IMG/VR virus record: IMGVR_UViG_3300021961_008157
Origin: a virus
Length of the DNA stretch: 64,000 nt
Direction: 5' to 3' (one strand)
In this document: piece after piece, positions 11,352 through 61,316 of the stretch
Layout: every line of letters begins with the position of its first letter
Position numbering within the stretch: the first letter of the stretch is position 1
Notes under the pieces: generated by a model
What the model saw: the letters and a program-made list of their open reading frames with translations, nothing else
What the model was told of the DNA's origin: nothing
Databases searched by the model: none
Position numbers and translations under genes: made by a program

Positions 11352-12046
11352 AAAAAGTTTACATCTGTGGCGATAGTTTTGGAACTAACGATCCCGAATA
11401 CAGCAACAAATCTTGGGTTGATCAGTTAACTGCTCGTTTAAAAAATACCGCCACTGTTATAAACTTGAGTCGGGTGTGCGCTAGTAATTTGCACATAGCA
11501 CTACAAGTAGATCAAGCCATTGAGGACCAAGCTGATTTTATAATATATCTAGCAACTGCCAGCACACGAGAAATTGTAAAATTACGCTCGTTAAAACAAC
11601 ATAAAAAATTACTTGATCGTATAGTTGATATCACCAAGCCCGGACACACACCAGATTTAACATCATATTCATTTGGTAGCTTAGATGACACAACACTTTT
11701 CAACTCAGCACAACTGTTATTATTAAAACAATATCACGCAGAGTTTTTTGATATTGATGTTGAAGTTTACAAAAATCGTCTTATAATTGAAGCTGCACTA
11801 GAACATTTAGTTGATAGCCACATTCCATTTTTGTTTGACCGTGGCGGCTTTGAACATCCTAGTTTTTTAAATAGTACGCCCGTTGAGTATTTTAAAAAAT
11901 ATGCTAAATTTTTTAGTGAGATTAATTTGTGGGAGTGGGTTGTTAATCAGCCAATGACACACAGGCCCTACTATCACATTAAAGACATGCAAGTACATAC
12001 ACGTATTGCTGATTATTATTACAATATAATAATTTCTCAACTATGA
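11348..12046 (+). CDS. SGNH/GDSL hydrolase-like protein
   Basis: N-terminal ICGDSF block, ASN block, C-terminal His. Confidence 0.5.
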   Translation: MKKVYICGDSFGTNDPEYSNKSWVDQLTARLKNTATVINLSRVCASNLHIALQVDQAIEDQADFIIYLATASTREIVKLRSLKQHKKLLDRIVDITKPGHTPDLTSYSFGSLDDTTLFNSAQLLLLKQYHAEFFDIDVEVYKNRLIIEAALEHLVDSHIPFLFDRGGFEHPSFLNSTPVEYFKKYAKFFSEINLWEWVVNQPMTHRPYYHIKDMQVHTRIADYYYNIIISQL

Positions 12047-24376: not shown

Positions 24377-25126
24377 TTACGCGGTCTTTACTTTGCTGGG
24401 TCCACGACCACGACGTGCTTTAGGTGCTGCAACAGGTGCTGCAACAGGTTCAGCAAATGCTGGTACTTTAGCACTGGGACGTTTGACTGTGGGGTCAAGA
24501 CGCTCAGCATCCTTTTTCATTTTAGCAGCTTCAGCAATCATAGCCTTGGCATTGATTTCCATGGTCTGTGCCTGCGCTAACATATTAGCAGCAATGTCGC
24601 GATCGCTTAGTGCGCCTGACTCGGATGCTTTTAGTACCGGAGGAGCCACAAAAGCCGACTCAGCTTTACGAGCTTGCGACGCTTTAAACTCAGCTTCTGC
24701 TTTACGCTTGACTGCGGGATCAACTAAACCACGGCTAGCATCACTTTCAGCTAATCGGCGCACAGCTTCTTCACCTTGTTTCATTTCATTGAGCATTTTG
24801 TTCAGCTCATCAAGCCGCATTTTTGATTGTGCAGTTGGTGTAACTAAAATGTCAGCGGCACGAACTTTTTTAATCATGCGCTCTACGTGGAGCGTTTCTA
24901 AAATAGGACGTCCATCGGGCAAATAGCTACGATGTAGCGCATCAGCAAATTCTTCAGATGCTTGACCAGCATCGCTTTCCAAAACTTTTTGCACAGCATC
25001 TTGCCAGTGTGCATGCAGAGTCTCGGGATAAATTACCAAACACATGTGTTCTTCGTTTGGTACTTGACGATATAACACACAGACCTTGCGATCTCCATGT
25101 TTACCTACGTGTTTCATAAATGCCAT
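24377..25126 (-). CDS. hypothetical phage protein with Ala/Lys/Pro-rich tail
   Basis: GGAGAG RBS upstream, coiled-coil-like C-terminus. Confidence 0.65.
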   Translation of the reverse strand: MAFMKHVGKHGDRKVCVLYRQVPNEEHMCLVIYPETLHAHWQDAVQKVLESDAGQASEEFADALHRSYLPDGRPILETLHVERMIKKVRAADILVTPTAQSKMRLDELNKMLNEMKQGEEAVRRLAESDASRGLVDPAVKRKAEAEFKASQARKAESAFVAPPVLKASESGALSDRDIAANMLAQAQTMEINAKAMIAEAAKMKKDAERLDPTVKRPSAKVPAFAEPVAAPVAAPKARRGRGPSKVKTA

Positions 25127-29805: not shown

Positions 29806-30891
29806 TTAGGCACTGGCTTGCAGAATATACTTACCGTATTTCTGATGGAACTTATCGAAGTTTTTCAGCTTGGTAGGTTGGAACGGCAGTTCATATGTGG
29901 TAAGTGCAATACGAGCACCCATAACTACCAGTTCAGTTTCAAAGTTATTCATCATATATCCCAGGAAATTGTCAGCCATAGCGTGAAATTCTTTGTCAGG
30001 AATTTTACGGGCTACAGCATCTTTGAGCTCGTAGCACATGGAGATCACCAGGCTGTACATGGCACTGACTTCTTTGATTTCCAAGTCCTCAACTTTGCCT
30101 GCCAAAATATCTTCGGGCTTGGGCAGTCGAGAACTAATTTTGCGATGCGCCATAAACTTGACAGCCAGGCCCTCACCTACAGTACCTGCGATCAAGTTGG
30201 TTAACGTTTCGTCGTCGCCGTCATCTGCATACAGCAACTGGCTTACAAAAGTCCACGAACGCGGTGTGGCAAAAGCCCGCGAGCTTGACTTGGCATCAAA
30301 GTCGTACAAGTCTTGTTTGGCAAAACTCAAATAACCCGCTACATCCGGATGGATCTTGTTCTGCACCGCCCACGCCTGATATGATGGGAAATCTACAGCC
30401 ATTTCTTGGTGAATAAAGCGATTGGCCAGCGGCGTGGGCATACGATAAGTTACGCCCTTGTCGCTTTCACGATTGCCAGCAGCCGCAATCACAACATTTT
30501 CTGGCAAAACATATTTGCCCACACGACGATTGAGAATCAGCTGATAAGCCGCGGCTTGCACTGAACCAGCGGCGCTGTTCAACTCATCTAGGAACAGCAC
30601 TACAACTGGATACTCCGCGGCAGTTTCTTCATCGGGCAGGTCAATTGGTGGTGCCCAATCCATTTTGCCAGTTTCTTTGTTGTAGAACGGAATACCGCGA
30701 ATGTCTGTAGGCTCCATTTGACCCAGTCGGCAGTCATACATGATGCCTCCTAGTTCTTCAGTGATGCTGGCTACAAGATCACTTTTGCCAATGCCCGGAG
30801 GACCCCAAAGGAATACGGGACGTTTAACTTTGAATGCTTGGAGTAGACTTTTGCGAGCTTGTCTGGAAGTGACTGTACGAGTGTCGGACAT
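29806..30891 (-). CDS. MoxR-type AAA+ ATPase
   Basis: GPPGIGKS Walker A, LFLDELN Walker B, AAAGN, LANRF. Confidence 0.92.
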   Translation of the reverse strand: MSDTRTVTSRQARKSLLQAFKVKRPVFLWGPPGIGKSDLVASITEELGGIMYDCRLGQMEPTDIRGIPFYNKETGKMDWAPPIDLPDEETAAEYPVVVLFLDELNSAAGSVQAAAYQLILNRRVGKYVLPENVVIAAAGNRESDKGVTYRMPTPLANRFIHQEMAVDFPSYQAWAVQNKIHPDVAGYLSFAKQDLYDFDAKSSSRAFATPRSWTFVSQLLYADDGDDETLTNLIAGTVGEGLAVKFMAHRKISSRLPKPEDILAGKVEDLEIKEVSAMYSLVISMCYELKDAVARKIPDKEFHAMADNFLGYMMNNFETELVVMGARIALTTYELPFQPTKLKNFDKFHQKYGKYILQASA

Positions 30892-33086: not shown

Positions 33087-34724
33087 TTAACTATTGAAAA
33101 TAGCCTTATTTAAAAATTTTGTTTGATCTGAATAATTAGCATCTAATACTATTTTTTGTTTTAAAAAATAAGAAAGTTCCTTAACAAAATTATCTGTTGT
33201 CATCAATGAAGCATAAAAATAGATATGTGGCAAACACAAAATGGTCTCGTCGATACCAAAAAGAGGAATATTTAATCTAGAGCCTTTGTACTCTTTGTAT
33301 TGTTGATTCACATAATTAAAAGCATTTTTAAATATGGTGTGTGATGTTTTGTACTTTTCGTTAACAAATAAATTATAATACATGTCTATATAGTTTTTGT
33401 CAAGCACATTTATTCTTGACAAGAATCTGCACATCCCAGAAAATATAATCATATGGGAAATGTCTTCTCGAGTGGCCGAATTGGTTGCGACAACAGTATC
33501 TACATTATACTCGCTATTATTTGCAATATTATTAAGATTTAAATTTTTTATTTTATTTTGATCAGAAAAATAAGCAGGAAATGTTACTGCTTTCTCGCTT
33601 TCAATTTGCAATCCGTATTTTTGTATATAAGTTGGATCGCTCATTTCGGTATTAGGTAAAATCTGACATACACTAATAACGTCTGGTAATTCTAAGTGCC
33701 AATCCATAAAACTTTGTAATTGATTAAAAAAGGTTTCTCTGGTTTGCATCGGTAACCCAATAATTAAATCTAGTCGTAGCGGCACCTCAAGTTCTTTTTT
33801 AAATTTCCCAAATGCTTTCCTCCATGGTATTGTTTCGGCACGTTTAATTGCTACTCCGACTTTGTTATCAATGTCTTGTACTCCATACTTGAATCTATCA
33901 ACAAGTGGTCCAAAAATTTTAGCAATTTCAAAACATTTTTCTTTGTTATTTTTAGCCCAACTTACATCAACAGACTGCAATTCTTTTCTTTTATTTTGCG
34001 CAATATGTCTTGCAATTTCTATGTCATCGCGTGATATGCCAAAATTAGCGTCGGCTATTCTTAATATGTTTATCGAACTATTCAATAATATATCTAATTC
34101 TTGTTTTACAGTTGAAAGCAACTTAAATCTCATTTTTTGTCGATTACTATCACCCCATGAACAAAATGTGCAACCATACGGACAACCTCTGTTTGTCTCG
34201 TAAACATAGACAATACTTTCTTGTTCCTCTTTTTTTACTGCTAGCGAGTTAATCAACTCTTGTATTTCAGCGGCGTTGTCCAAAACTGAACTTGATCCCC
34301 ACTCTTTTAAATAATTTGTCACCAGTTTATCTTTAATTTCGCCATCTACTATCTTTGCGAAAATGGTCTCGGGGTCACCAATTACACATGTATCAAAAAG
34401 AGGATCTTCGGCCCATAAAGCAGTTACTTGATAACCACCAGCAATAATTTTACAATTTGGCCACGTTTCTTTTACTTTTTTTGATAAAGATAAGTGATGT
34501 TCTTCGTTCCAAGAATAAACGCTAATAACAAAATAGTCAAGTTGACCGTGCTTTTTTAAATATTCAAAGCACTGGTCAACAGGTGTGTCTCGAACAATTG
34601 GCGTTATCCACTCAAGTTCTTGTTTTCCATATTTTTTGTAATCAGATTTTAGTAAAAAATAAATTGATGGTATATGAATGGAGAAACCCGGATGACTTGG
34701 ATTATGAACGTATATTTTTTTCAT
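33087..34724 (-). CDS. B12-binding radical SAM enzyme
   Basis: N-terminal ISVYSWN...IIAGG B12-binding domain, ETNRGCPYGCTFC, DANFG, LIIGLP. Confidence 0.85.
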   Translation of the reverse strand: MKKIYVHNPSHPGFSIHIPSIYFLLKSDYKKYGKQELEWITPIVRDTPVDQCFEYLKKHGQLDYFVISVYSWNEEHHLSLSKKVKETWPNCKIIAGGYQVTALWAEDPLFDTCVIGDPETIFAKIVDGEIKDKLVTNYLKEWGSSSVLDNAAEIQELINSLAVKKEEQESIVYVYETNRGCPYGCTFCSWGDSNRQKMRFKLLSTVKQELDILLNSSINILRIADANFGISRDDIEIARHIAQNKRKELQSVDVSWAKNNKEKCFEIAKIFGPLVDRFKYGVQDIDNKVGVAIKRAETIPWRKAFGKFKKELEVPLRLDLIIGLPMQTRETFFNQLQSFMDWHLELPDVISVCQILPNTEMSDPTYIQKYGLQIESEKAVTFPAYFSDQNKIKNLNLNNIANNSEYNVDTVVATNSATREDISHMIIFSGMCRFLSRINVLDKNYIDMYYNLFVNEKYKTSHTIFKNAFNYVNQQYKEYKGSRLNIPLFGIDETILCLPHIYFYASLMTTDNFVKELSYFLKQKIVLDANYSDQTKFLNKAIFNS

Positions 34725-34767
34725 TATTACACTATTTACTCGTCCCGGGCATTTCTACAATATAAGA

Positions 34768-35571
34768 TTATTGACCCAGACCTAGATGCGCAGTCGACGT
34801 CCTTTTGACAAGAAATTCTTTGAAAGCATTTGATTTCAAAATATCTGTTAACGCAGGCAACGTATCCTTGGATAAGGTGCCCATTGACCATAGATCAATG
34901 GTTATATAGCGTTCGTTGTTTTTAGAAGGCCCTGCTAGGAATGGTAAATTATAATGATTTTTCACAGACGACGCTGCTATACATTTGCTACCAGCACTGA
35001 TAACATTTTCAACTCCGTTGGCAATAAAGATCATGTCAACGTCGGTTCCAGCAATTGCAGCAGCCCTTGCAGCACTAAGAGCAGCATATGGAATAGCGCG
35101 AACATTTAATTTCAATGAACTGTTATTCATAAGATCATTCCACTGTGATACTGAGCCTACTGACATAGCTACTTTATAAGTTTGCGAGCCGTTAAGAGTT
35201 GACAATGTAATGTTTGTTTTTGATGGGGCGGTGCACAAATAAAGTGTTGTGCTTGCCAGATTAGTAAGAAATTTAAATGTAGGATAATCTTTCTGTGCAG
35301 GACAACGTGCTGCTGTGTCTTGAAAAATATCGCCCCCGGCCATAACAACAAATGCATTTTGTTGAGTTTTTGCATTTGCCAGTGCATCGTGACAGGATTT
35401 AAAAAACTCTTGTTTGACTGTGTGTCCCTTGCTCCGCAGCCCTTCGACTAACGGCACTGACCATAATTCAGTGCCACCACCGGGCGGATAATAGTAATTA
35501 AAGTGATAAGATTCGGCTGCTGCTGTAACTGATGCAACAGTAAATATAATTGCTGTAAAAAACTTATTCAT
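34768..35571 (-). CDS. TctC/Bug-like periplasmic substrate-binding protein
   Basis: Signal peptide, YPPGGGTE motif, IPY...A.AA.IAG.DVD; adjacent to a TctA-like gene. Confidence 0.6.
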   Translation of the reverse strand: MNKFFTAIIFTVASVTAAAESYHFNYYYPPGGGTELWSVPLVEGLRSKGHTVKQEFFKSCHDALANAKTQQNAFVVMAGGDIFQDTAARCPAQKDYPTFKFLTNLASTTLYLCTAPSKTNITLSTLNGSQTYKVAMSVGSVSQWNDLMNNSSLKLNVRAIPYAALSAARAAAIAGTDVDMIFIANGVENVISAGSKCIAASSVKNHYNLPFLAGPSKNNERYITIDLWSMGTLSKDTLPALTDILKSNAFKEFLVKRTSTAHLGLGQ

Positions 35572-35580
35572 GATTTCTCC

Positions 35581-36906
35581 TTAAAAGTTGAGTAATAAAA
35601 ATCGGAAAATTTCCGATGATACTGATGTTGATAAAAGCATACCAAATATCAGTGCAACGCGAACTGAAAATTCTTTTATAAAAAAACCAGTTAACATTGA
35701 GATCCCAGTTAAGAACAAGTACAAGCCTAGTTGATGGTTGGCTATTCCTTCTGACACGCACACCGCTATGCTTAATGCAATTAATATAGGATAAATTATT
35801 TTGTTTAAATGGATGTATATTGAAACCATGCTTTGGTAAAAAATTCCAGCAATAATCCAATTAACTATATTAGACAGAATCAGTATCAAAATCAATGTGC
35901 TGGACATTGATGCTATAAAATCAAAACTGGTAGAAAGTCCAAAACCATTACGTTCGGCCAACGCCATGATCACTGCTTCTGATGGAATAATGGGCAGCAC
36001 TAAAAATATCAACGGTATCAATACAGTGATAGAAGCTGAATTGTTGGCAGCTTCTGCAGAAATTACTATTTTTTGATTGTTGTTATTGATCTTTTTCTCA
36101 ACTACTGCTGCAACCATCGATGATATTGATGTTCCTACCATTGGCACTAGCCCCATTATTGCACCTATCAATGAGCCGCGCAATGATGACAACACCGGTG
36201 GGAATTTTAATAAATTTTGGAGGCGCGTTCTAAAACCAAAGTCATTCAAATTAATAACAGGAACAGGTAATGTACGCCTTGCATAACTAAAAATTTCCGG
36301 CAACATTAAAAATCCAATGAATACTGGTAAAAATGGAATTCCACTGGGCAAAAAATTTGCCGTGGATAAAAAATATTCTTGTCTTAAAACGTCATATCCA
36401 ATATGTCCAATTATTAGTCCTGTAATTGCAAATGTTAGTGCCAACACCTTTTGTTTGCTTGTAATACTAACTAGCACAATAATCATTGTTAGCAATATTA
36501 ACCTTGGATTGTTGTTAAGAAAGTATTTCATAAAATCAGTATACCGCGTGGCTGCATAAAAAATTAGCACACCAAAAATAGCTGCTATTAAGCTAGATGT
36601 GGCTGTGTTGCTTAATAATTCTGCACCACGACCCTGTCTAAACTCATCATGGCCGTGCTGGACTGCTGGTATACCTGTAATTTCCCCGGCTATACCATAC
36701 ACAATAGATGGTATGCTGCTGTAATACTGTACAGAAGACATCATTACAGAATAAAATACAAACAGTTCAACAACCGGCAATCCGATCAAAATAGGATATA
36801 AAATTAGTATTCCGGAAGCAGGGCCCACTCCCGGAAATATCCCGATTGCAATACCACTGACTATACCAAGCAGTATGACTGGCAACAAATATAATAACTC
36901 ACTCAT
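35581..36906 (-). CDS. TctA-like tripartite tricarboxylate transporter permease
   Basis: Polytopic; GIFPGVG, GLVPMVG, AEAANNSA. Confidence 0.8.
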   Translation of the reverse strand: MSELLYLLPVILLGIVSGIAIGIFPGVGPASGILILYPILIGLPVVELFVFYSVMMSSVQYYSSIPSIVYGIAGEITGIPAVQHGHDEFRQGRGAELLSNTATSSLIAAIFGVLIFYAATRYTDFMKYFLNNNPRLILLTMIIVLVSITSKQKVLALTFAITGLIIGHIGYDVLRQEYFLSTANFLPSGIPFLPVFIGFLMLPEIFSYARRTLPVPVINLNDFGFRTRLQNLLKFPPVLSSLRGSLIGAIMGLVPMVGTSISSMVAAVVEKKINNNNQKIVISAEAANNSASITVLIPLIFLVLPIIPSEAVIMALAERNGFGLSTSFDFIASMSSTLILILILSNIVNWIIAGIFYQSMVSIYIHLNKIIYPILIALSIAVCVSEGIANHQLGLYLFLTGISMLTGFFIKEFSVRVALIFGMLLSTSVSSEIFRFLLLNF

Positions 36907-37024
36907 TTAAGCAACTGGTCCAAGATATCAAAATTAAAACGATGATCGTAATAAACTATCGTAACTTTACTTGTATTTGGGTTTGCTTGTAGAAGAACTC
37001 TACTTACGGTCGGCGTTCTGTTAT

Positions 37025-37054
37025 ATTATAACAGTAAAGACATCACTATGTCAA
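37025..37054 (-). promoter_or_regulatory. sigma70-type promoter with extended -10
   Basis: TTGACA-N18-TATAAT with TG upstream of -10. Confidence 0.65.
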
Positions 37055-37114
37055 GCGTCAATTGATATTCCGACGTCCAATGGCTGGGCGTTGCATCTTT
37101 ATTTATCTTTTGAT

Positions 37115-37188
37115 TGGAGCGGGGTAAGAGAATCGAACTCTCAGCATGAGCTTGGAAGGCTCAGGTATTACCACTATACGAACCCCGC
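37115..37188 (-). tRNA. tRNA-Gly(TCC)
   Basis: Cloverleaf, loop CTTCCAA, encoded CCA. Confidence 0.95.
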
Positions 37189-37197
37189 AGTTAACAT

Positions 37198-37273
37198 TGG
37201 TGGATCGTGAGAGGCTCGAACTCCCGCCATTCTGCGTGTAAGGCAGACACTCTACCAACTGAGTTAACGATCC
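37198..37273 (-). tRNA. tRNA-Val(TAC)
   Basis: Cloverleaf, loop CTTACAC, CCA. Confidence 0.95.
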
Positions 37274-37280
37274 TATTATA

Positions 37281-37354
37281 TGGTGCCCCGCCACAGAATC
37301 GAACTGCGAGCCTCGGATTACAAAACCGATGTTTTACCATTAAACTAGCAGGGC
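37281..37354 (-). tRNA. tRNA-Thr(TGT)
   Basis: Cloverleaf, loop TTTGTAA, CCA. Confidence 0.93.
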
Positions 37355-37424
37355 TACTTCTATTTATTGCCTATATTTTCGCCAATAAATTTTGGTGTCT
37401 TCAGAACTGACGTTTTGAATATTT

Positions 37425-39080
37425 TTATTTCAATAAAATCTTAGAGACTAGGACTTGTCCAAAAGTTTCAAATCCTTGATATAATTCTGCATCACAATTG
37501 ATACCTAGTCGATCATAAAGTTTAGTTTTGTATTCAATAGCTCGGACGATTTTCAATCTATCTAGCTTGTTCCAATCTATTTCGCCAAAAGATTTGTTTA
37601 ATACTTGACTCATATCGGCGCCAGCCCCGGCAAAATAAAAAGCAGATTGTCCAGTTACTTTACGGATTTTGTGTTTTTGTCGATAATCATGTAAATCTCC
37701 TACCATCTTTTCTACTTCTAGTCGGTTGGTATGTTCGTTCTCCCAAATCATAGTCCCGGCATGCCGAGAAACTGCGTAAATGTTCTTGTTATCGTTAGAT
37801 GATTGATCGATTTCTCGATATCCATACTTGGTATAATTTTTATCGATATCGCTGAGAAATTGATTATTAAAAGAATGATTACTAGGTTTAATATGAAGGG
37901 CATATACCTCCCATGAATCCAACGGATTATTTTCGCTGAGCAAAAATTGCTCAGTTTGTTTCATGCTTTCTATGCTTTCGTATGGGAGTCCAAAGATAAA
38001 ACTTCCATGAAGACTGACTTGATCTCCGTACGTGTCTTTTATCTTCTGTATTGTGGCGATCAGTTTTTCTCGGTTGCCGCCCTTACCAATAGCAGCAGCT
38101 GATTTAGAATTGAAAGTTTCTATACCAAAATGTGCTGCTCGCAGCCCACTTTTAAAAAGATAATCAATGGTTTCGGGGTGTGCTGCTAACAGATCTAAAC
38201 GGATATATCCCCACCATTCCAAATCAAAAGGCAAGGACTGGGAAAGTTCATACAGCATCTTGCACTTTTCTGGACTGTCGTTAACTGTATCATCACAAAA
38301 AACATATCTAGTGACTCCAAACTTTTCATAGTTATCTATTAGTTCTTGTTGTAGAAGATCAGTACTCCTGACAAAATCCATCTTTTTCTTTCCATTCAAA
38401 GGAAAACTACAAAAGCTACAGTTAAAGATGCAACCTCTGGCTATCTCTATCATGAGTGTTTCGCCTGAGAATATAACATCGTAATCTTCATAATTCATTG
38501 AACAAGAACTAAAATTGTATCCTTGTGCTTTACTGTCGTCGATGATTATAGGTCCAAATATACTCCGATAGCTTTGTTTTAATTGGACAGAAGGATCTAT
38601 CAAATGATTTGCCAAATTTACTATACTCATTTCGGCATAACCTAATACTATATAATCAAAAAATTTATTGTGAGAATTGTCAGATGCAGCAGGCCCTCCT
38701 AGGACTAATCGACAGCGAGGATTTTTCGATTTTATAAAATTTTTTATTGGTTGATTTTTATCAAGGCCATGAGGAATGATCATTCCTGGACTACTGTTTT
38801 TGAGCACCGCTCCGCCATCACTTGTTTGCGTTGCTGTGCTAATGTCTGCATAATAGAAATTATTAACTCCAACAAATAGTGTTTTATCAGATATTAAAGT
38901 ATCTAGTATCTTGAAGATTTCTGTGACAGAAAAAATTGATAAATGATGTATGACTGCTACTTGTATACCATGTTGTCTTAGTGTATGGGCTACTTTATAG
39001 ATGCCATAACTTTTTTTCAAACTAATAATATCTGTATTATCAGCAAACAAAATTACATTAGGTTTGGTATTGTCAAACAT
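37425..39080 (-). CDS. B12-binding-type radical SAM enzyme
   Basis: LVLGGP...GYAE, EIARGCIFNCSFC, DDTVND, FGIETF, FIFGLP. Confidence 0.85.
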   Translation of the reverse strand: MFDNTKPNVILFADNTDIISLKKSYGIYKVAHTLRQHGIQVAVIHHLSIFSVTEIFKILDTLISDKTLFVGVNNFYYADISTATQTSDGGAVLKNSSPGMIIPHGLDKNQPIKNFIKSKNPRCRLVLGGPAASDNSHNKFFDYIVLGYAEMSIVNLANHLIDPSVQLKQSYRSIFGPIIIDDSKAQGYNFSSCSMNYEDYDVIFSGETLMIEIARGCIFNCSFCSFPLNGKKKMDFVRSTDLLQQELIDNYEKFGVTRYVFCDDTVNDSPEKCKMLYELSQSLPFDLEWWGYIRLDLLAAHPETIDYLFKSGLRAAHFGIETFNSKSAAAIGKGGNREKLIATIQKIKDTYGDQVSLHGSFIFGLPYESIESMKQTEQFLLSENNPLDSWEVYALHIKPSNHSFNNQFLSDIDKNYTKYGYREIDQSSNDNKNIYAVSRHAGTMIWENEHTNRLEVEKMVGDLHDYRQKHKIRKVTGQSAFYFAGAGADMSQVLNKSFGEIDWNKLDRLKIVRAIEYKTKLYDRLGINCDAELYQGFETFGQVLVSKILLK

Positions 39081-39119: not shown

Positions 39120-39211
39120 TGGTACCAGCGGAGGGGATCGAACCCTCTCAAGAACGCTAATCTGGCGCTAAAAGTCTTATAAGGACTCTCTGACTACCAA
39201 GTCTCGCTGGC
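39120..39211 (-). tRNA. non-canonical tRNA with TAT anticodon (nominal Ile, AUA)
   Basis: 7-bp acceptor, GAGGG-TTCGATC-CCCTC T arm, loop CTTATAA, tetraloop D arm, long variable arm, CCA. Confidence 0.8.
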
Positions 39212-39220
39212 ATTAAATTT

Positions 39221-39501
39221 TGGTGCGACTGGCCAGAATCGAACTGGCATGACTTGCGTCGAGGGATTTTCTTACCACTATAGTTTTCACTACCCTTTCG
39301 GTTTGTGGTCTGGACTATACCTTAACCATTGCTTTCGCTTTAGGTCCCCGCCGTCTAGTCTCTACACGTTCCCTTTTGGGTTTCGCTCGGTATTAGCATT
39401 TTACAGCCTTCACCGAATTTGACGGGTTCTACTCCTACCGTTTCCAGTAGGGCACTCAAATTTTCTAAGTCCCTTGTGTCTACCGATTTCACCACAGTCG
39501 C
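39221..39501 (-). tRNA. trnL: tRNA-Leu(TAA) split by a group I intron (exons 39467-39501 and 39221-39270)
   Basis: Joined exons give an 85-nt type II tRNA with AGGGA-CTTAAAA-TCCCT anticodon arm and CCA. Confidence 0.93.
39271..39466 (-). ncRNA. group I self-splicing intron (trnL-UAA type), 196 nt
   Basis: U.G splice pair in P1 (ACUU/GAGU), P AAATTCGGTGAA, Q AATACCGAGC, R GTGTAGAGACTAGACGG, S AAGGTATAGTCC, terminal G. Confidence 0.93.
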
Positions 39502-39513
39502 ATTATGTGTTCT

Positions 39514-39542
39514 ATTATAGTACACTATTAATTAAATGTCAA
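39514..39542 (-). promoter_or_regulatory. sigma70 promoter of tRNA-Leu/UAU-tRNA unit
   Basis: TTGACA-N17-TATAAT. Confidence 0.8.
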
Positions 39543-39583: not shown

Positions 39584-40417
39584 TTAGAATGTGTGCTGCA
39601 AACGAACACGGCTAGTAGCAACATTGGATGCTGCACTAGAGTTTCCATCTACTGTACGATATGCAAAAGCAACACTTGTACGCTTGCTGAGTGCATAGGA
39701 AGCACCAACTTCTTTAGCAGTACCATTGCCATCACTGTAAGCAGCGCCAACAGTTAGAGGACCAACGGGCAGGCTAACGCCAACAGCGTAGCTGTCAGAA
39801 ACGCCAGTTTCGCGACCACTATAACCAGCACCAACTGTTACGCCGGCAACTTTCATAGAAGCACTTGCGCGAACACGCTTGGATGTTTCGTTGTAGTCAA
39901 CACCTGCATCCAATGGGCCAACGGCACCAGTGGCACTCACTGTGTATCCACGAGCAGTAGTAGCATCAACAGCGCGGCTACCACTTACGCCAACCTTAAA
40001 ACCACCGATAGCGGGAGAAGTGTAACCAATGGTATCAATGTTACTAGCAGCAGCTAATACGGAACCGTCGGCACCAATTACTGGAGCGCCAGCATAACCA
40101 CGACCGATAATGCCGTTACCAGCTTCAACTTGGCCGACTGTAACGGAACCGAAGCCACCACCGATAGTGACAGAAGCGTCAGTACCAGCCAATGTTTCAC
40201 CACGGCCATTGCCATTCCAGCCCATTTGTGCAGACACAGACATGCCAGCACCTAGATCTTCAGTAGCTTTAACTACGATCTCAGACTTGGTGATGCCCGA
40301 AGTTGCAACTGCGCCTTCGGCTTTGGTTAAGTCGTAACGCATAGTACCGGAAACGGTTTGTGCTTGAGCAGCACCAAAAGATGCCGCCAAAGCGGCAATT
40401 AAAACGAGTTTTTTCAT
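39584..40417 (-). CDS. Gram-negative general porin (betaproteobacterial type)
   Basis: Signal peptide MKKLVLIAALAASFGAAQAQ, EDLG, GGFGSVTVG, YALSKRT, C-terminal QHTF. Confidence 0.88.
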   Translation of the reverse strand: MKKLVLIAALAASFGAAQAQTVSGTMRYDLTKAEGAVATSGITKSEIVVKATEDLGAGMSVSAQMGWNGNGRGETLAGTDASVTIGGGFGSVTVGQVEAGNGIIGRGYAGAPVIGADGSVLAAASNIDTIGYTSPAIGGFKVGVSGSRAVDATTARGYTVSATGAVGPLDAGVDYNETSKRVRASASMKVAGVTVGAGYSGRETGVSDSYAVGVSLPVGPLTVGAAYSDGNGTAKEVGASYALSKRTSVAFAYRTVDGNSSAASNVATSRVRLQHTF

Positions 40418-40533
40418 TGATTTGTTTTCCTTATGAACAAGCAGAATTTCTGCTTCAGTTTTACTTATCAGTGTTTATACTATAACAAACAAAAGCACAC
40501 AAAAACTGGCGTTTTTGCGCAAAATGGCAAAAT

Positions 40534-43002
40534 TTATGCACGAATATGTTGCAAAATAGTGTTTACCAGTAGCTGTCGCCCCACTGGTTTAATTAACACA
40601 TCATCCATACCACTTGCAAGTGCTTCTTTACGCATAAATTCAGACCCATTGCCAGTTACTGCCACAATAGGCAACCGATTCAGCTGATCCACTGATTTAG
40701 CACGGATCAGGCGTGTGGTCTCCAAACCATCTACCATGGGCATTTGAATATCCATCAACACTATATCAATGCTACCGTGAAGTGTATCTAACTGTTTAAG
40801 TGCATCATAACCATTAGATGACTGGAACACTTCTGCCCCCGCGTCTTCTAGCATTGTAACAAGTGCAATACGATTGGTTGTCATATCGTCCACAACCATA
40901 ATGCTTAATCCGTCTAAGGGCTTTTCGTCCTTAAACGTGTCACTGTCAAATTCTTTTTCAAACGGTACAACAATAGTAAAACTAAATGTAGACCCTACAC
41001 CCAGTTCGCTTGTTACAACAATTTCACTGTTCATTGCTTGCACCAAGCGGCGTGAAATTGCAAGGCCCAAGCCAGTGCCCCCATATTTTCTTGTGTGTCC
41101 CGAATCCGCTTGAGTAAATGGCGTAAACAGCTTTTTCAGCATTTGTTCGCCCATACCAATTCCAGTGTCAACAACTGTAAATTTAATTGTGGCCTTTGAT
41201 CGATTGTCTGAGGGTTGCAATTCAATGGAAACAGTAACCCTACCAGTTTCAGTAAACTTTACAGCATTGTTTGTTAAGTTAACCAATACTTGTAGCAATC
41301 GCGAATCATCAACTATTATGTTTCTATCCACCAATGCTGGATCTAAATTCATTAATACAATTACATTTTCGTTTGTTTGACTGTTGCTTATAATAGCATT
41401 TAGATTGTCAACTAGTGAAGGCAAACTGGTTACAACTGGATCAAGATCCAGTTGTCTTGCTTCCATTTTGCTGTAATCTAAAATGTCATTAACAATACGC
41501 AATAGTAGTTGACCTGAATCTTTAGCAACTTCCACACAATATTTGGCTTTATCATTTAAGTCATATCGCGATAGCACTTCTAACATGCCAAGCACACCGT
41601 TTAGTGGTGTTCGCACTTCATGGCTTACAACAGATAAAAATTCTTGCTTGGCTTGTGCACTTGCCTTTACTTCTTCAAGCAGTTGATGATCAGCAGTCAT
41701 GTCCAACAGTTGCACAAACAAGTGTGGGCTGTTGCTAATGCTAATACGGCTAAAAATCATACGCACATCCACATGATCTGCATGTGTCATTGGGCCCACA
41801 TATTCAAACACTTGATCTTCACCTGTAGTCATTACAGTTTTTGCAATGGCATCGCAACCAGTTTTTGTCCACCAGTTGGATGTAAACACATTTGTGTTTT
41901 CCAGTTGAGCCACGGTGGCGCCTGCTATTCTATAAAGCGCACGATTTGCCCAAACAAGATTGCCCCGCTGATCAAATATAGATTTACCATATACTGCACG
42001 ATCCATTATTTTTCTTAGGTCTTGCAGTTCTGTTTCTTGTCGCTGTTTAACCAGCCTCGACAGTTGAAACAACACAAAAAATCCTGTTACAACACCAAAC
42101 AGGCAGGCAAATATAATCAATGATTCAGTGCGAGCAGGCCAATTAATTGGCATTGGTTTGCTGCGAAACATTTTAACTTCCAACACCAAATAGTCCGGCG
42201 CGGCAGATGAGTTGCCGCCAGTGGAAATCAAGTCCGAAAACGCAAACCGGCCATCAACTGCCCTTGGAATCAGCGTCCAACGATTTATTATAGGAAAAGC
42301 AGTTTCTTGATTTACTAACTTGTCAGCATACACTTGCTGTAATTCGCCGGGACTTGATCCTAACAAAATTACTGGATGTATGTCATTTTCATTATCAGCA
42401 TATGTTTCAAGTGCTGGCAAGTCAGCTATCGCGTTAGGCAGTTTAAGCAAAGATATACCGAGGCCAAGTAGTATACCGTTTTTGTCATAGCGGGGAGTAC
42501 GATAAATCAAACCGGTACCACCTTGAACCAACTTAAATGGACCTTCCCAAGCACCTTGACGAGTATTAATAATATTTCTTACTGCCGGGCGTTCTGCCAA
42601 TAAGTTAAGTCCCATTGCAGCTTCGTTGCCTTCTAGTGGAACTATTTGCGTAATAACAGTTCGATGATCTGCCCATTGTGCAACTGAATTGTGTCCTGAC
42701 AGCCCAACAAGACTGCCAGCACTAGACTGAAAGCTGCTGTTATTTGATAATACTTCAAGCGGTAAGTTGGATGTGCTGATTGCCAGACGCTTGGCTTGGT
42801 CCAGTCTATTTGATATAGCTCTAGCAATACGATCACTGGCCGCGTCAGCCTTAGCGTGCCACACTTGCTCTTGTTCTTTGATATAGTCTTTTTGCCAAAA
42901 CAATCCACCGAGCAAAAACACCGCCGCCCCAATAACACCCGCAACGATGGAGGCACGGTATATGTGTTGTTTAGCAGAGTCAGACAAGTTTCGCATTTTC
43001 AC
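40534..43002 (-). CDS. hybrid sensor histidine kinase (CHASE-PAS-HisKA-HATPase-REC)
   Basis: PLEGNEAAMGLNL/GPFKLVQGG CHASE motifs, SHEVRTPLNG, NAVKFT, GGTGLGL, VLMDIQMP. Confidence 0.92.
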   Translation of the reverse strand: MKMRNLSDSAKQHIYRASIVAGVIGAAVFLLGGLFWQKDYIKEQEQVWHAKADAASDRIARAISNRLDQAKRLAISTSNLPLEVLSNNSSFQSSAGSLVGLSGHNSVAQWADHRTVITQIVPLEGNEAAMGLNLLAERPAVRNIINTRQGAWEGPFKLVQGGTGLIYRTPRYDKNGILLGLGISLLKLPNAIADLPALETYADNENDIHPVILLGSSPGELQQVYADKLVNQETAFPIINRWTLIPRAVDGRFAFSDLISTGGNSSAAPDYLVLEVKMFRSKPMPINWPARTESLIIFACLFGVVTGFFVLFQLSRLVKQRQETELQDLRKIMDRAVYGKSIFDQRGNLVWANRALYRIAGATVAQLENTNVFTSNWWTKTGCDAIAKTVMTTGEDQVFEYVGPMTHADHVDVRMIFSRISISNSPHLFVQLLDMTADHQLLEEVKASAQAKQEFLSVVSHEVRTPLNGVLGMLEVLSRYDLNDKAKYCVEVAKDSGQLLLRIVNDILDYSKMEARQLDLDPVVTSLPSLVDNLNAIISNSQTNENVIVLMNLDPALVDRNIIVDDSRLLQVLVNLTNNAVKFTETGRVTVSIELQPSDNRSKATIKFTVVDTGIGMGEQMLKKLFTPFTQADSGHTRKYGGTGLGLAISRRLVQAMNSEIVVTSELGVGSTFSFTIVVPFEKEFDSDTFKDEKPLDGLSIMVVDDMTTNRIALVTMLEDAGAEVFQSSNGYDALKQLDTLHGSIDIVLMDIQMPMVDGLETTRLIRAKSVDQLNRLPIVAVTGNGSEFMRKEALASGMDDVLIKPVGRQLLVNTILQHIRA

Positions 43003-45733: not shown

Positions 45734-46110
45734 CATCTGGTTGTTTATTTTACAAGGTAAGTCCTACCCCGGGTCTGGCTCAAAGTGCCAGTACAGCGGC
45801 CTTGCTACGGCTGTAGAACTTGATGTTCTTGCCGCTAACAGTTACGCTACCATTTGTAGATGCGTTTGCATTTACTAGTTTTATGCGATTAACGTTCGTC
45901 ATCTAACGTGCTGTCCAGTTCAATACTCTTTACTCAATCGATCGCTATGTCAGGCCCATCATAAACACATTGGATTTTGGATTCGAACCTTGTCCTAGTG
46001 TTGTCCATCTGCACTTCCCACAGTACTGAACCCTATGTGTTTATGGTGGACCTGCCCGGTACCGCCCCGGGGTCTTGAATCCTTTTCTATCACCTTCATA
46101 CAGCAATAAC
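45712..46110 (-). ncRNA. ssrA: circularly permuted (two-piece) tmRNA
   Basis: Acceptor piece ending CCCGG-GGCGGTA-CCGGG-CAGGTCC-ACCA (46044); 86-nt hairpin-closed spacer; coding piece starting GGGCCTG (45957) with G3.U70; tag ORF 45780-45869. Confidence 0.9.
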
Positions 46111-46128
46111 TTACATTATATATTTATT
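46085..46128 (+). repeat. 44-bp direct repeat, copy 1 (tmRNA -10 and 5' end)
   Basis: Identical to 47142..47185. Confidence 0.95.
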
Positions 46129-46144
46129 TTAGCCAATGATAAGT

Positions 46145-47017
46145 TTATAGGTTATGCTTTTTCCATTCTGCACGAACCCTGGCTTTAGACTTTGCTGATA
46201 ATGGAACATAGTCCAAATCTTTTGCCATTGAGTCGCCATTTGTATAGCACCATTCAAAGAACTTGATTGCTTCTTTCGCAGAGCTATCTGGATAAACAAT
46301 GATGTAAGTTTCAGCAGTTAATTTGTAGTTGCCTTCTTTGAAATTATCAAAATTTGCTTCAACACCGTCTAACTTAGCAACAGTTAAACTATTGGATTTG
46401 GTGTAAGCATATTCAACGTATCCAATGGAACCAGGCAATCGCATAACCATTGCAGCAACACCGGCGTTGCCTTTACCTTGTGCAATGTTGTTACCTTCCC
46501 ATTTAACTGTCTTTCCTGGTTTAGTTGTAAAACCGTGTTTAGCCAGATAGTTTGTAAAAACAGAAGTAGTGCCAGAACTATCAGCACGGGATATCCGAGT
46601 AATTGCCAAGTCAGGCAACTTAGAATCAATTTGCTTCCAGTTTGTAACACGACCATCAAAAATATCAGCTATCTGTTTGCTTGTTAAATTTAACTCATTG
46701 GTCTTGACACCTGGAATGTTTACTACTGCAACAACACCACCCATGACCATTGGGAACTGGATCTGACCATTCTCATCCAACTCTGCTTGTTTAACTGCTT
46801 CGTCACTTGCACCAAACTGTACAATCTTTCCATTAATCTGTTTGATTCCGCCGCCAGAACCAATCGCCTGATAGTTGACTTGCACACCTGTTGCTTTGTT
46901 ATACTCTGCTGCCCATTTGCTATAAATCGGCGCAGGAAAGGTAGCTCCTGCACCAGTGACTGTAATTGCTTGAGCATTAATTGCAAATGCAGCAAGAAGC
47001 ATTAATAATTTTTTCAT
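46145..47017 (-). CDS. pstS: phosphate ABC transporter substrate-binding protein PstS
   Basis: GAGATFPAPIY, YQAIGSGGG, FGASD, RADSSGTT, IGYVEY. Confidence 0.95.
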   Translation of the reverse strand: MKKLLMLLAAFAINAQAITVTGAGATFPAPIYSKWAAEYNKATGVQVNYQAIGSGGGIKQINGKIVQFGASDEAVKQAELDENGQIQFPMVMGGVVAVVNIPGVKTNELNLTSKQIADIFDGRVTNWKQIDSKLPDLAITRISRADSSGTTSVFTNYLAKHGFTTKPGKTVKWEGNNIAQGKGNAGVAAMVMRLPGSIGYVEYAYTKSNSLTVAKLDGVEANFDNFKEGNYKLTAETYIIVYPDSSAKEAIKFFEWCYTNGDSMAKDLDYVPLSAKSKARVRAEWKKHNL

Positions 47018-49049: not shown

Positions 49050-49139
49050 TGGCGGAAGCGGTGAGATTCGAACTCACGATACCGGTTAAGGTATGACGGG
49101 TTAGTAATCCGTTGCCTTCGGCCACTCGGCCACGCTTCC
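49050..49139 (-). tRNA. tRNA-Ser(ACT)
   Basis: Type II cloverleaf, G73, loop TTACTAA, CCA. Confidence 0.88.
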
Positions 49140-51788: not shown

Positions 51789-51863
51789 TGGTGCGCCCGG
51801 GGAATTCCGACATCCCGACCCAGCGATTATGAGTCGCTTGCTCTGCCCCTGAGCTACAGGCGC
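51789..51863 (-). tRNA. tRNA with CAT anticodon, probably tRNA-Ile2 (lysidine)
   Basis: GCGACTCATAATCGC anticodon arm like enterobacterial ileX; atypical T loop GTCGGAA; CCA. Confidence 0.82.
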
Positions 51864-53987: not shown

Positions 53988-55844
53988 TTAAAAGTTATAT
54001 TTTGCCGCAACATAAAAGGTCCTGCCTAATTGAGCATAACCCGATGGTTGCTCATATTTTTTATCAGTAATGTTATTTATTTTAAAACTTACTGTTAATT
54101 TTTCGTTAAACCACGATTCTTCAATGAAGAAATTATAAGTTGCTACACTATCGGCTTGAAAACGTGCAAATGTTGTACCATTTAGGTCATACATTTGTCC
54201 CATATAATTTGCTGACAGTCCAACTTTGAGATTGGGTTTTGCATGCCAAACAGCATGTGCATTACTAGACCACTGTGGGCGTCTTAGCTTTTGCATACCT
54301 AAACTATCAATGCTGTTATTATATGTTGTATTGGTCTTTATCTCAAATTGATTAAAGCGTTTTTTAAGTGCAACCTCAACACCTTGGCTGCTCGATACAC
54401 CTGAGTCATTTTGATATGTAGCAGTAAATGTGCTTGAGTCATACACATATGCAACGGCATCTTTGGTCTTAATATAAAAGAATGTAATATCAAACCAATC
54501 TTGTTTGTAACCAACTTCGTATGAAACGCTGCGCTCTGGATTAAGATTCGGGTTACCACTAAAACCAAAATTATCTACACCGTATAGTTCATAAAATGTG
54601 GGCAAGCGAAAACCATTTGCTACTGATGCTTTAAAGCCATGATAGTAGCCACCAATTCGGCCAGTTAAATAACGATTATATTTTGTATTGGTATCGGCCC
54701 TGGCAGATATGTTTATTAACTGGTCTTTGTTAAACTTATATACGCTATTTGCAAATAGTGCATTATTTGTACGGCTTGAGTCTACAGTAGAAACATACCC
54801 ACCACTGGTGGTATCAATTTTTCCTGCTGTGTTTGAAAATTCATAACCAGTTGTAGTTTCGAATTTGTTAGACATTGACCAAAGTTGTGTAACTAAAACA
54901 GTATTGTTTACGCTATTAAACTTATCAATGCTGCCTTGATTATTATATTTTCTATCATGCATGCTGCGATTGTAAATTATTTTAGTACGATCATTGCTTG
55001 CACTTGCTTGAAAATTGCGCCAGCGCCAGTTGGCTGTATAGTTGTCAACATCTGCATTGCTGCTGTCTAAATTTGTAATGTTGTAATTTTGAATATAGCC
55101 TGTGTAATAAGTCCAATCATTGGAAAACGTTTTTTGCTGTAATGCAAAGTTGTTAAAAGAATATGGATCGCGCTCACTACCACTGGCATGTACGCTAATG
55201 TTATCAGACTTTTCGTGTTCACCTTCAAAGCTGACAATGGTGTCTTGCAAACGATGCCCTAATTTAACTTTCTTGTTAAATGTTTTGTTGCTGCCATAAC
55301 TGGCCAAAACATAATTATTGGCAGTTACTGATGTGGTCATGTCAATAACACCGGCAACAGCATTTGCACCATACAAACTGCCAGCAGGCCCTTTAATAAC
55401 GCTCACACGATCAAGTCCAACTGATGAATGTTGGCTGATATCGTCGGCCCCGCTCACAGTACTTTCATCTCTAATAGAAATGCCATTTAGTGTTAGTAGT
55501 GTATGATTCGAGTCTGTTCCTCGCAAAAACAAACTGCTACTTTGCTTGGTAGTACCATTTTGCATGATGTTCATGCTAGTTGAATTAGACGTAGATTCTT
55601 GTATGGTTCGGAATGGATCTAAATAAACAGTATTCCAGGTATAGGTACTACTAGCTTGCTCTGTAGGTGTTCTTGCTAAAACAATAGTAACACGATATGG
55701 TTCTAAATCAACATTGGTTACATGTTGCCCGGCAACATAGACTGTTGTTAAAGATGACAGTTTGCCAACTTTTTTTATTTCATCTGCATGTGTATAAGCA
55801 GACAAAAACAAAACAAACAAAATTACTGGAAGTTTTTTTATCAT
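53988..55844 (-). CDS. TonB-dependent outer membrane receptor (BtuB-like)
   Basis: LFLRGTDSNHTLLTLNG, VIKGPAGSLYGANAVAGVI plug, GNPNLNPE, NITDKKY, C-terminal F. Confidence 0.88.
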   Translation of the reverse strand: MIKKLPVILFVLFLSAYTHADEIKKVGKLSSLTTVYVAGQHVTNVDLEPYRVTIVLARTPTEQASSTYTWNTVYLDPFRTIQESTSNSTSMNIMQNGTTKQSSSLFLRGTDSNHTLLTLNGISIRDESTVSGADDISQHSSVGLDRVSVIKGPAGSLYGANAVAGVIDMTTSVTANNYVLASYGSNKTFNKKVKLGHRLQDTIVSFEGEHEKSDNISVHASGSERDPYSFNNFALQQKTFSNDWTYYTGYIQNYNITNLDSSNADVDNYTANWRWRNFQASASNDRTKIIYNRSMHDRKYNNQGSIDKFNSVNNTVLVTQLWSMSNKFETTTGYEFSNTAGKIDTTSGGYVSTVDSSRTNNALFANSVYKFNKDQLINISARADTNTKYNRYLTGRIGGYYHGFKASVANGFRLPTFYELYGVDNFGFSGNPNLNPERSVSYEVGYKQDWFDITFFYIKTKDAVAYVYDSSTFTATYQNDSGVSSSQGVEVALKKRFNQFEIKTNTTYNNSIDSLGMQKLRRPQWSSNAHAVWHAKPNLKVGLSANYMGQMYDLNGTTFARFQADSVATYNFFIEESWFNEKLTVSFKINNITDKKYEQPSGYAQLGRTFYVAAKYNF

Positions 55845-59888: not shown

Positions 59889-60322
59889 ACTGTTACTTCT
59901 TCTTTTGTGTGGAATGGGCCTTGGTAGGGATAGCGTTGTAGTGCAATCAGTTTAGGATCTTGTATTACCCGCCACTTTCGCCCACGTTTGATTGAATACC
60001 ACCCAGCAGCAAACCAGGACTTGCTTTTTTTAGTTTTGGTGTATAAGGGCAAGCGATGCACCACATCCCAAACTGGATTGTAACAGCGGCCTGCTGCGGA
60101 AAATCCATGCACCGTGCCAACTTCGGGCTTGACACGTGGAGGATTTTTTTCAAACGTAATATTTGATTCTCGTGCTGCAAGTTTAATAGTTTTAAACTGC
60201 TTGACTTGATCATGAATACGAACTTGATAACCACCGTTTAGTGCTTCAATGTTGCCAACTTTTTGATCTTCTTCTTGTAATATCCAGTATTGTTTATCAG
60301 CTACTACTTTAGCTACTAACAT
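59885..60322 (-). CDS. hypothetical phage protein
   Basis: LYTKTKKSKSWFAAGWY...PKLIAL.RY.Y.GPF. Confidence 0.65.
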   Translation of the reverse strand: MLVAKVVADKQYWILQEEDQKVGNIEALNGGYQVRIHDQVKQFKTIKLAARESNITFEKNPPRVKPEVGTVHGFSAAGRCYNPVWDVVHRLPLYTKTKKSKSWFAAGWYSIKRGRKWRVIQDPKLIALQRYPYQGPFHTKEEVTV

Positions 60323-61316
60323 CTAATACTCCTTTGTAAGTTTCGTTTAACCAACGACCAAAACTTTCCGCGTTGTCGCCGCATCTGTTAAGATCGTATT
60401 TGCCACAGAACTGCATAAATCTCACACCCACTTGACCAATGTCCTTTCGCGACACCTGTTCAATGATAGCCAAGTCCACCGCATCTTTGACTGCCTGCGG
60501 TTGACAAGTAAGATCAATCAACTCACGATTGCGCTCATAATCGTCTAGCACACGATGTTCTTCACCATTGTGATCAGTCCATCGTTGTAGCATCATATTG
60601 TTCCAGTTATAGCCACGAGCTTTACGGTCCTCAAATGCTTCTTGTAATCCCACTTTGTTTTTGGTGCCCTTGGTGCGAACACCGGGATAAGCGGAAAAAA
60701 TGTTATCGCTAGTATCACCGCGCATGCATTTTTCAAACAGGAGCCACGCAGGATCGGGAATTTTTTTAGGTTCCTTAGTTTTCTTATCAATCACAGGATT
60801 GCCTTTAGCATCAAAAATGCCTTCTGTGGTAATAAGTTCATCGGTAATACCATTATACTGCTTTACATTGGGCGCAACCAACTGAACAAAGTCAGTGTCG
60901 CTGCTGATAATAATGTGCTCGTCTTGGGGGTGTAAATCAATCCAACGTGCAATGATGTCATCGCCCTCGGCTGTGGGGCAACGAAGCACACTACAGTTGG
61001 TTCGTTCTGACAAGTATTTAGTCAAATTATCATACGTTTCCCAGAACATTTTGTCTTCTTCTGCTTCTGCTTCAGTAAGAGCGGCGCGAGCTACAGCACG
61101 GTTGGCTTTGTAGGGTTTGTAATAGTCCTTGCGCCAACTACGCCCTTCTAGAGCAAAAACCACGTGATCTGCTTCAAAACGGCGCACAACTTTATTGGCG
61201 CTCATTAGTGTAGTGTGTAATGCTACACCAACTTTCTCCCAAGGATCTGAAGCGCGAAAAGCCGTGTGCCGAGCACGGAAGAACATGTTGGCAGTATCAA
61301 TTAGAACGTATTTCAT
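60309..61316 (-). CDS. rnh: T4-type RNase H / 5'-3' exonuclease (FEN-like)
   Basis: LIDTAN, WRK..Y..YKANR, EGDD, SSDTDF.QL, GDTSDNI. Confidence 0.88.
   Translation of the reverse strand: MKYVLIDTANMFFRARHTAFRASDPWEKVGVALHTTLMSANKVVRRFEADHVVFALEGRSWRKDYYKPYKANRAVARAALTEAEAEEDKMFWETYDNLTKYLSERTNCSVLRCPTAEGDDIIARWIDLHPQDEHIIISSDTDFVQLVAPNVKQYNGITDELITTEGIFDAKGNPVIDKKTKEPKKIPDPAWLLFEKCMRGDTSDNIFSAYPGVRTKGTKNKVGLQEAFEDRKARGYNWNNMMLQRWTDHNGEEHRVLDDYERNRELIDLTCQPQAVKDAVDLAIIEQVSRKDIGQVGVRFMQFCGKYDLNRCGDNAESFGRWLNETYKGVLDVSS

Follow-up and report, generated by a model that had tools for sequence, protein, structure and literature searches.

Reading AUA as isoleucine without misreading AUG is a classic problem of decoding, and the known solutions are lysidine, agmatidine, pseudouridine and an adapted IleRS. 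Among the allo-tRNAs, UAU is the commonest anticodon and 'five-stem-junction' folds have been proposed (Mukai et al. 2017, PMC5389517; review PMC7609411); the group is defined by a 12-bp acceptor branch divided 8/4 or 9/3 between acceptor and T stems (Mukai et al. 2017, PMC5389517). The allo-tRNA(UAU) genes are from soil Acidobacteria, where they are located near toxin-antitoxin genes; many have disrupted helices, and they showed no activity when translation was tested in E. coli (PMC5389517). Class I tRNA-Ile(UAU) of Mycoplasma mobile (Taniguchi 2013, PMC3575796) and of lactic acid bacteria (Tomikawa 2018 and Uesugi 2022, as cited in PMC9976931) reads AUA without lysidine, and has an ordinary 5-nt variable loop and an IleRS adapted to UAU (Arg865 in M. 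mobile). The nematode nev-tRNA-Ile(UAU), which combines the UAU anticodon with a long arm, is eukaryotic and is leucylated in vitro (Hamashima 2012, PMC3333845; PMC4300185). Bacterial tRNA-Sec (RF01852) has a UGGU D tetraloop, an anticodon stem of 6-7 bp and a long extra arm. Here a phage tRNA with a UAU anticodon, tRNA(UAU), is compared with these systems; no description of its family or of its design was found in the literature searched.

The gene lies on the minus strand at positions 39120-39211 of the window, the whole stretch of 64,000 nucleotides of viral DNA that was analysed, where ARAGORN called a tRNA-Ile(tat). The 92-nt sequence and the arms assigned to it by an earlier reading made from the letters alone (the sequence-only reading) were identical to the reverse complement of this interval, and RNAfold returned the same five-helix cloverleaf with an energy of -33.1 kcal/mol (z = -3.27 versus shuffles). 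Based on ARAGORN, RNAfold and covariation, the molecule is comprised of a 7-bp acceptor stem, A8, a compact D arm, a 7-bp anticodon stem, an extra arm, a 5-nt linker, a T arm, A73 and an encoded CCA. The D arm (39192-39203, minus strand, as are all the arms) reads GACU-UGGU-AGUC, a stem of 4 bp closed by a tetraloop that contains G18 and G19. The anticodon arm (39170-39190) has conserved G.U pairs in its stem and the loop CUUAUAA, in which the anticodon UAU occupies 39179-39181. The extra ('variable') arm, AGCGC-CAGAUUA-GCGUU (39153-39169), has a 7-nt loop (39158-39164) with a central GAU, and its stem covaries. The linker CUUGA (39148-39152) joins it to the T arm, GAGGG-UUCGAUC-CCCUC (39131-39147); the G and A of the linker are invariant in the alignment and its two U are kept in at least 90% of sequences. 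As drawn in the sequence-only reading, the molecule has A8 in place of U8, a 4-bp D stem closed by UGGU, a long extra arm and an encoded ACCA. The long anticodon stem was also borne out, although not its length of 6 bp, since the conserved G.U extends it to 7 bp by both RNAfold and covariation. Several features of a canonical tRNA are retained: U33 within an anticodon loop of 7 nt, G18 and G19, a T loop of the UUCGA type, the 7/5 division of the acceptor/T branch, and CCA after the discriminator. The general Rfam tRNA model (RF00005) did not reach its gathering score of 29 bits on tRNA(UAU), lower-scoring matches of the clan being suppressed under tRNA-Sec in the E-value search; the best Rfam match was tRNA-Sec RF01852 at 29.7 bits, below the gathering score of 47. 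The pair G1.U72 is present as had been noted, but cannot serve as a special mark of tRNA(UAU) because it is common in other tRNAs of related arrays, including Leu-CAA (18/20) and Lys-UUU (21/24).

The long extra arm of class II tRNAs is flanked by 1-2 nt on each side. An assignment of tRNA(UAU) to class II (Leu, Ser, Tyr) did not hold, there being 0 nt before the extra arm and 5 nt after it, a D loop of 4 nt versus 7-11 nt, and a UAU anticodon. The likeness to tRNA-Sec resides in the D tetraloop, anticodon stem and extra arm; identity with tRNA-Sec was ruled out by the subthreshold Rfam score, the 7/5 rather than 8/5 branch, a D stem of 4 rather than 6 bp, UAU in place of UCA, and A73. The same tRNA-Sec-like look, with tetraloop D arm, lengthened anticodon stem and long extra arm, is shared with the allo-tRNA(UAU) group. 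In contrast to that group, the branch is 7/5 with all seven acceptor and five T pairs covarying, and an eighth pair would be an A.C mismatch. The 8/4 fold was ruled out as an alternative, since A8 stands opposite an invariant C, and the 7/5 branch sets tRNA(UAU) apart from allo-tRNAs as described in the literature. The two also differ in setting and integrity, the present family being phage-borne, located in tRNA arrays, and with intact and covarying stems. The anticodon and the probable reading of AUA without lysidine relate tRNA(UAU) to the class I tRNA-Ile(UAU), and in Lactobacillus a UAU tRNA is found beside a CAU tRNA-Ile, as in the phage of the window. Unlike those tRNAs, that of the phage has an extra arm and a minimal D arm, and would have to work with the unadapted IleRS of several host phyla. 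Compared by description, the nev-tRNA-Ile(UAU) is similar in its long arm and anticodon, whereas AUA positions in phage proteins are Ile-like and not Leu-like.

The sequence-only reading had pointed to covariation among phage homologues as a check on the fold, and compensatory change was abundant. Across 60 distinct homologues 99.5% of cells were paired and 17/28 pairs showed compensatory change, with no shuffle or slid control coming close; RNAalifold independently predicted the same cloverleaf. The D arm is invariant in this set, in which 4/5 pairs of the T arm covary, and the D stem covaries in the wider family. Among 25 diverse compact members, 23/28 pairs covary, including 4/4 of the D stem, and all five helices show compensatory changes. 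Since pairing in the 60 homologues is nearly complete and compensatory changes occur in every helix of the wider 25, the cloverleaf is not a product of chance, and both the fold and its conservation are directly established. The same is true of the strict UAU, which was the anticodon of every family member found on the compact scaffold. Scans of 2.9 million viral contigs with the first, middle or third anticodon base freed returned chance matches only, and a scan of 241 million metagenome records with the middle base freed returned a single chance match. The residues A73, A35, U36 and A37 are invariant in the 60 sequences, A35-A37 being fixed by the search pattern, and U72-A73 is common to tRNA(UAU) and the tRNA-Ile(GAU) of the same arrays.

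The loop of the extra arm is nearly as constant. In scans that left it free, CAGAUUA was present in all but 2 of ~120 matches listed (~98%), an overall count and not a per-base test. The two variants were CCGAUUA and CAGAUCA, the former also present in Synechococcus phage S-SKS1, and the central GAU is kept in all three variant cases seen. A derivation of the extra arm from the arrays' tRNA-Ile(GAU), by way of its anticodon arm, was rejected because the stems have no consistent similarity. Judged from the alignments, the scaffold comprising A8, a 4-bp D stem with NGGU tetraloop, a 7-bp anticodon stem, the CAGAUUA hairpin and the 5-nt linker is lineage-specific and maintained by selection.

A BLAST search against named phages identified homologues in three, the jumbo Sinorhizobium phage Phosso, the Synechococcus myovirus S-SRM01 and Synechococcus phage S-SKS1; the gene is annotated as tRNA-Ile(tat) in the Phosso record and has no annotation in those of S-SRM01 and S-SKS1. 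A search pattern built on the D arm, anticodon loop and extra-arm loop matched at least 120 IMG/VR contigs. The same pattern matched only 5 contigs among 185,579 bacterial and archaeal species genomes; these were metagenome bins and two Nostoc assemblies. Thus, the family is specific to phages. Among the matches listed, the gene was always located within a phage tRNA array and on the strand of the array, some arrays containing 25-36 tRNAs for all amino acids. In the sequences read, members of the lineage resembling the window end in ACCA, as do the CAU tRNAs of their arrays, and most cyanophage-like members and the adjoining CAU tRNA have no encoded CCA. Cyanophage-like contigs carry tRNA(UAU) in a conserved trio with a CAU tRNA and tRNA-Leu(UAA), for example at 3010-3742 of locus L002, at 1494-1875 of locus L142 and in many group-B loci. 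A scan without the D-arm constraint revealed compact members with other D stems (GUGU/ACAC, GAAC/GUUC and CUGU/ACAG), and also members of 93-96 nt in which the D arm is normal (GCUC-AAUUGGCA-GAGC) and the anticodon stem has 5 bp, at loci L152 (5643-5735), L153, L159, L160 and others. Since these full-D-arm relatives share UAU and the CAGAUUA loop, the form in the window is a compact branch of a wider family in which both bodies carry the same two loops.

The window is part of a large phage, as indicated by PHROG families that include an exonuclease, an ATPase, an HNH endonuclease-like protein and a QueE-like protein, and contains at least eleven tRNAs and a permuted tmRNA (ARAGORN, Rfam). It is much like a related complete phage (G002) of 174.5 kb with 28 tRNAs and a permuted tmRNA. 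Immediately upstream of tRNA(UAU), on the same strand, is a tRNA-Leu(UAA) gene (39221-39501, minus strand, exons read from the sequence), the CCA of which is separated from the start of tRNA(UAU) by 9 nt. It is interrupted after U34 by a group I intron of 196 nt (39271-39466; Rfam RF00028, 53.2 bits). The intron, here phage-borne, has the insertion site long known from trnL of cyanobacteria and plastids; it has no ORF, and its nearest phage match is in uncultured phages of 735 kb (LR756501). Ahead of the tRNA pair is a predicted sigma-70 promoter, read from the sequence at 39514-39542 on the minus strand, with TTGACA and TATAAT spaced by 17 nt and 12/12 consensus positions.

Other features of the window were recorded. 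The two-piece tmRNA gene (45736-46158, minus strand) matched Rfam RF04321 with 96.6 bits and RF01849 with 64.9 bits, and the permuted tmRNA of the related complete phage encodes the tag ANDEKFALAA. A tRNA-Ser with the anticodon ACU (A34) at 49050-49139 (minus strand) matches the commonest Ser codon of the phage, AGU (20 per 1000); loci L030, L044 and L093 have this unusual anticodon too, and it is among those listed for Sinorhizobium phage AP-J-162. Auxiliary genes encode PstS, TctA, a porin, a TonB-dependent receptor, a hybrid histidine kinase and many radical-SAM enzymes. The host-like envelope and uptake genes (35581-36906, 39584-43002, 46145-47017 and 53988-55844) comprise the TctA permease, the porin, a CHASE hybrid histidine kinase, PstS and a BtuB-like TonB-dependent receptor. 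The radical-SAM genes (3419-13335, plus strand, and 33087-39080, minus strand) include at least 3 paralogues with the twitch domain N_Twi_rSAM and B12-binding proteins, and adjoin genes for sugar-nucleotide, aminotransferase and carbamoyltransferase functions, a neighbourhood which suggests a phage-borne glycan or natural-product pathway. No relatives of the radical-SAM protein adjoining tRNA(UAU) were found in the genome-contig collection.

The codon AUA is used 340 times in the window, or 19.4 per 1000 codons, and accounts for 31% of Ile codons. The meaning of AUA was evaluated with TctA (26 AUA codons) aligned to 41 distant homologues, and with a B12-radical-SAM protein (18 usable AUA codons) aligned to 150 cluster representatives of at most 52% identity. 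In both proteins, the residues opposite AUA match those opposite AUU and AUC, and the profiles of Leu, Ser and Tyr codons differ. For the radical-SAM protein the frequencies of I, L and V were.30,.16 and.12 in AUA columns and.34,.16 and.14 in AUU/AUC columns, whereas L was.30 and I.15 in Leu-codon columns. The Ile model was ahead by a wide likelihood margin, which is inflated because the homologues are related to one another. The alignments thus establish that AUA means Ile in the phage proteins, which does not in itself prove which tRNA carries that Ile. The codon is unevenly distributed, with 19-26 AUA each in TctA and the radical-SAM genes and none in four genes (60309-61316, 29806-30891, 39584-40417 and 24377-25126) encoding a 5'-3' exonuclease, an ATPase, a porin and one other protein; the lack of AUA in these genes may be a matter of expression level or of timing, for instance if they are switched on ahead of the phage tRNAs.

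Five complete genomes that carry the gene (those of Phosso and S-SRM01 and three from IMG/VR, 174-480 kb in length) yielded neither a TilS-family gene nor one of the class I IleRS type, and the control genomes all scored. Therefore, host enzymes must serve tRNA(UAU), and the possible hosts, cyanobacteria and rhizobia, are far apart. The features of tRNA-Ile identity present in tRNA(UAU) are A73 and the A35, U36 and A37 of the anticodon loop. Minor determinants of E. coli IleRS are C4-G69, U12-A23, C29-G41 and G16, D20 and D21 of the D loop (PMC9976931). Of the identity features, tRNA(UAU) lacks G34 or lysidine-34, having U34 instead, and has A4-U69 in 54/60 members, C12-G23, and a tetraloop without positions 16, 20 and 21. 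Furthermore, a UAU tRNA is poorly charged by E. coli IleRS unless Trp905 is replaced by Arg, and cannot distinguish AUA from AUG on E. coli ribosomes (Taniguchi et al., PMC3575796). Because of this poor charging and misreading of AUG, charging with Ile in ordinary hosts is not a given, and together with the absent minor determinants these properties are the main weakness of a simple decoder reading.

The phage also encodes a second potential reader of AUA, an Ile2-like tRNA(CAU) with the loop CUCAUAA at 51789-51863 (minus strand), which would need host TilS. Its presence had been proposed in the sequence-only reading and agrees with a Rfam tRNA match of 46 bits at 51792-51863; the corresponding gene of the related complete phage shares 84% identity with E. 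coli genes that carry the annotation tRNA-Ile. The gene has an aberrant T loop (GUCGGAAU-type, no UUC) and was missed by ARAGORN, and many tRNAs of related arrays have GGAUCGUUACC-type T arms without T54-Psi55. In at least 7 cyanophage-like loci a canonical tRNA(UAU) of 73-75 nt is located inside the trio, two genes from the unusual one (for example at 2261-2334 of locus L074). Beside the Ile2-like tRNA(CAU) in the phage of the window, or a canonical tRNA(UAU) in those loci, a plain AUA decoder would be redundant. The redundancy is not decisive because CAU and UAU tRNA-Ile genes coexist in Lactobacillus (cited in PMC9976931), and it leaves room for a second role. In favour of decoding, another Sinorhizobium jumbo phage has a tRNA-Ile(UAU), perhaps not a member of the family, that is listed as absent from the host (PMC11242549).

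The explanation that accounts best for these results, to which we assign a probability of about 0.6, is that tRNA(UAU) is a functional phage tRNA charged by the host and decoding AUA as Ile independently of TilS. It would be transcribed together with tRNA-Leu(UAA) from the strong predicted promoter, excised like the neighbouring tRNAs and provided with a CCA end. Host IleRS would charge it with Ile, and it would read AUA without lysidine or TilS. In this way tRNA(UAU) would supply a codon which is used heavily by the phage and which in the hosts is read by a scarce, modification-dependent tRNA. Independence of TilS was among three functions put forward in the sequence-only reading and is the best fit of the three, given the strict UAU, the tRNA-like A37, A73 and CCA handling, the frequent AUA with the meaning Ile, and the lack of phage TilS and IleRS; expression, processing, charging with Ile and decoding themselves are inferred.

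How an ordinary host IleRS might accept a UAU tRNA is addressed by a tentative extension of the decoder reading, itself rather unlikely, in which an identity element has been moved to the extra arm, whose loop (C-A-GAU-U-A) would mimic the anticodon loop of the major tRNA-Ile(GAU). An ordinary IleRS that reads G34 or L34 with A35 and U36 would reject UAU, and the GAU arm would offer it an acceptable loop. The extra arm, the linker of exactly 5 nt and the T arm have the geometry of a normal anticodon arm followed by a variable loop, and therefore the molecule could switch the arm stacked under the D stem, presenting the GAU arm to the synthetase and the UAU arm to the ribosome. That UAU and CAGAUUA travel together across different bodies, that the rare variants spare GAU and that the five complete phage genomes have no IleRS suggests such a role. 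Against it, A33 and U37 set the extra-arm loop apart from a genuine Ile anticodon loop, and the variants seen number only three.

The conservation of the two loops could also be explained by a role other than decoding, with tRNA(UAU) a tRNA-shaped RNA that either diverts a tRNA-targeting defence or toxin of the host from tRNA-Ile, as a decoy or sponge with the UAU and GAU loops as bait, or acts as a regulator. The redundancy with the Ile2-like tRNA and, in at least 7 loci, with a canonical tRNA(UAU) would then be accounted for. Conservation of the extra-arm loop equals that of the anticodon loop and hints at a specific partner, and the allo-tRNA(UAU) genes that are inactive in translation are near toxin-antitoxin systems (PMC5389517). 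However, no defence system aimed at tRNA-Ile was identified in this analysis, and the acceptor stem, A73 and CCA handling obey the rules of chargeable tRNAs in the same arrays. The anticodon loop has the full features of a decoder (U33, A37, and variable 31-39 and 38), and phages with small sets of tRNAs retain the gene next to Leu(UAA), a tRNA typical of codon supply. We consider a non-decoding function doubtful on these grounds.

A further proposal of the sequence-only reading was charging with Leu or Ser in the manner of an allo-tRNA. Charging with Ser, Leu or Tyr through the long arm would render AUA ambiguous or poison host translation. It is suggested by the class II and tRNA-Sec-like shape, by A73, which fits Leu and Tyr, by the leucylation in vitro of nev-tRNA-Ile(UAU) (PMC3333845, PMC4300185) and by allo-tRNAs that insert Ser at Leu codons in E. 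coli. The results disfavour it, since AUA positions in the two proteins match Ile and not Leu, Ser or Tyr, and the branch is 7/5 and not 8/4. A tRNA inserting Ser, Leu or Tyr at AUA, which constitutes 2% of phage codons and lies at Ile-type positions, would therefore hurt the phage's own proteins most. Bacterial TyrRS requires a GUA anticodon, and E. coli LeuRS requires elements of the D loop, none of which is present in a tetraloop. The pair C2-G71, found in 47/60 members, is listed as an antideterminant against E. coli SerRS, and tRNA(UAU) has A73 where E. coli tRNA-Ser has G73, a residue listed as blocking LeuRS and TyrRS (PMC9976931). Mischarging is thus improbable. Although the general Rfam tRNA model scored below threshold, a decayed pseudogene or chance cloverleaf, envisaged earlier for the case that homologues had no compensatory changes, can be dismissed with near certainty because such changes are abundant, with 98-99.5% pairing and 17-23 of 28 pairs covarying in more than 80 distinct sequences from very different phages.

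Overall, the comparison indicates that the phage tRNA(UAU) is most likely a structural variant of an AUA-reading tRNA-Ile with a shrunken D arm and a hairpin loop copying the isoleucine anticodon GAU. If the decoder reading is true, phages of cyanobacteria, rhizobia and many uncultured hosts would carry tRNA(UAU) into cells with an IleRS that is not adapted to UAU, which would constitute a further solution to the reading of AUA. If, in addition, the GAU arm is the handle for IleRS, the family would exemplify the relocation of an anticodon-type identity element to a different arm. It would be of interest for research on tRNA identity and for engineers of the genetic code seeking a naturally orthogonal-looking scaffold. 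The family is also relevant to phage annotation, as it escapes the general Rfam tRNA model and the gene is unannotated in the records of S-SRM01 and S-SKS1. Even as a plain decoder, tRNA(UAU) would represent a widespread and unannotated structural class of tRNA.
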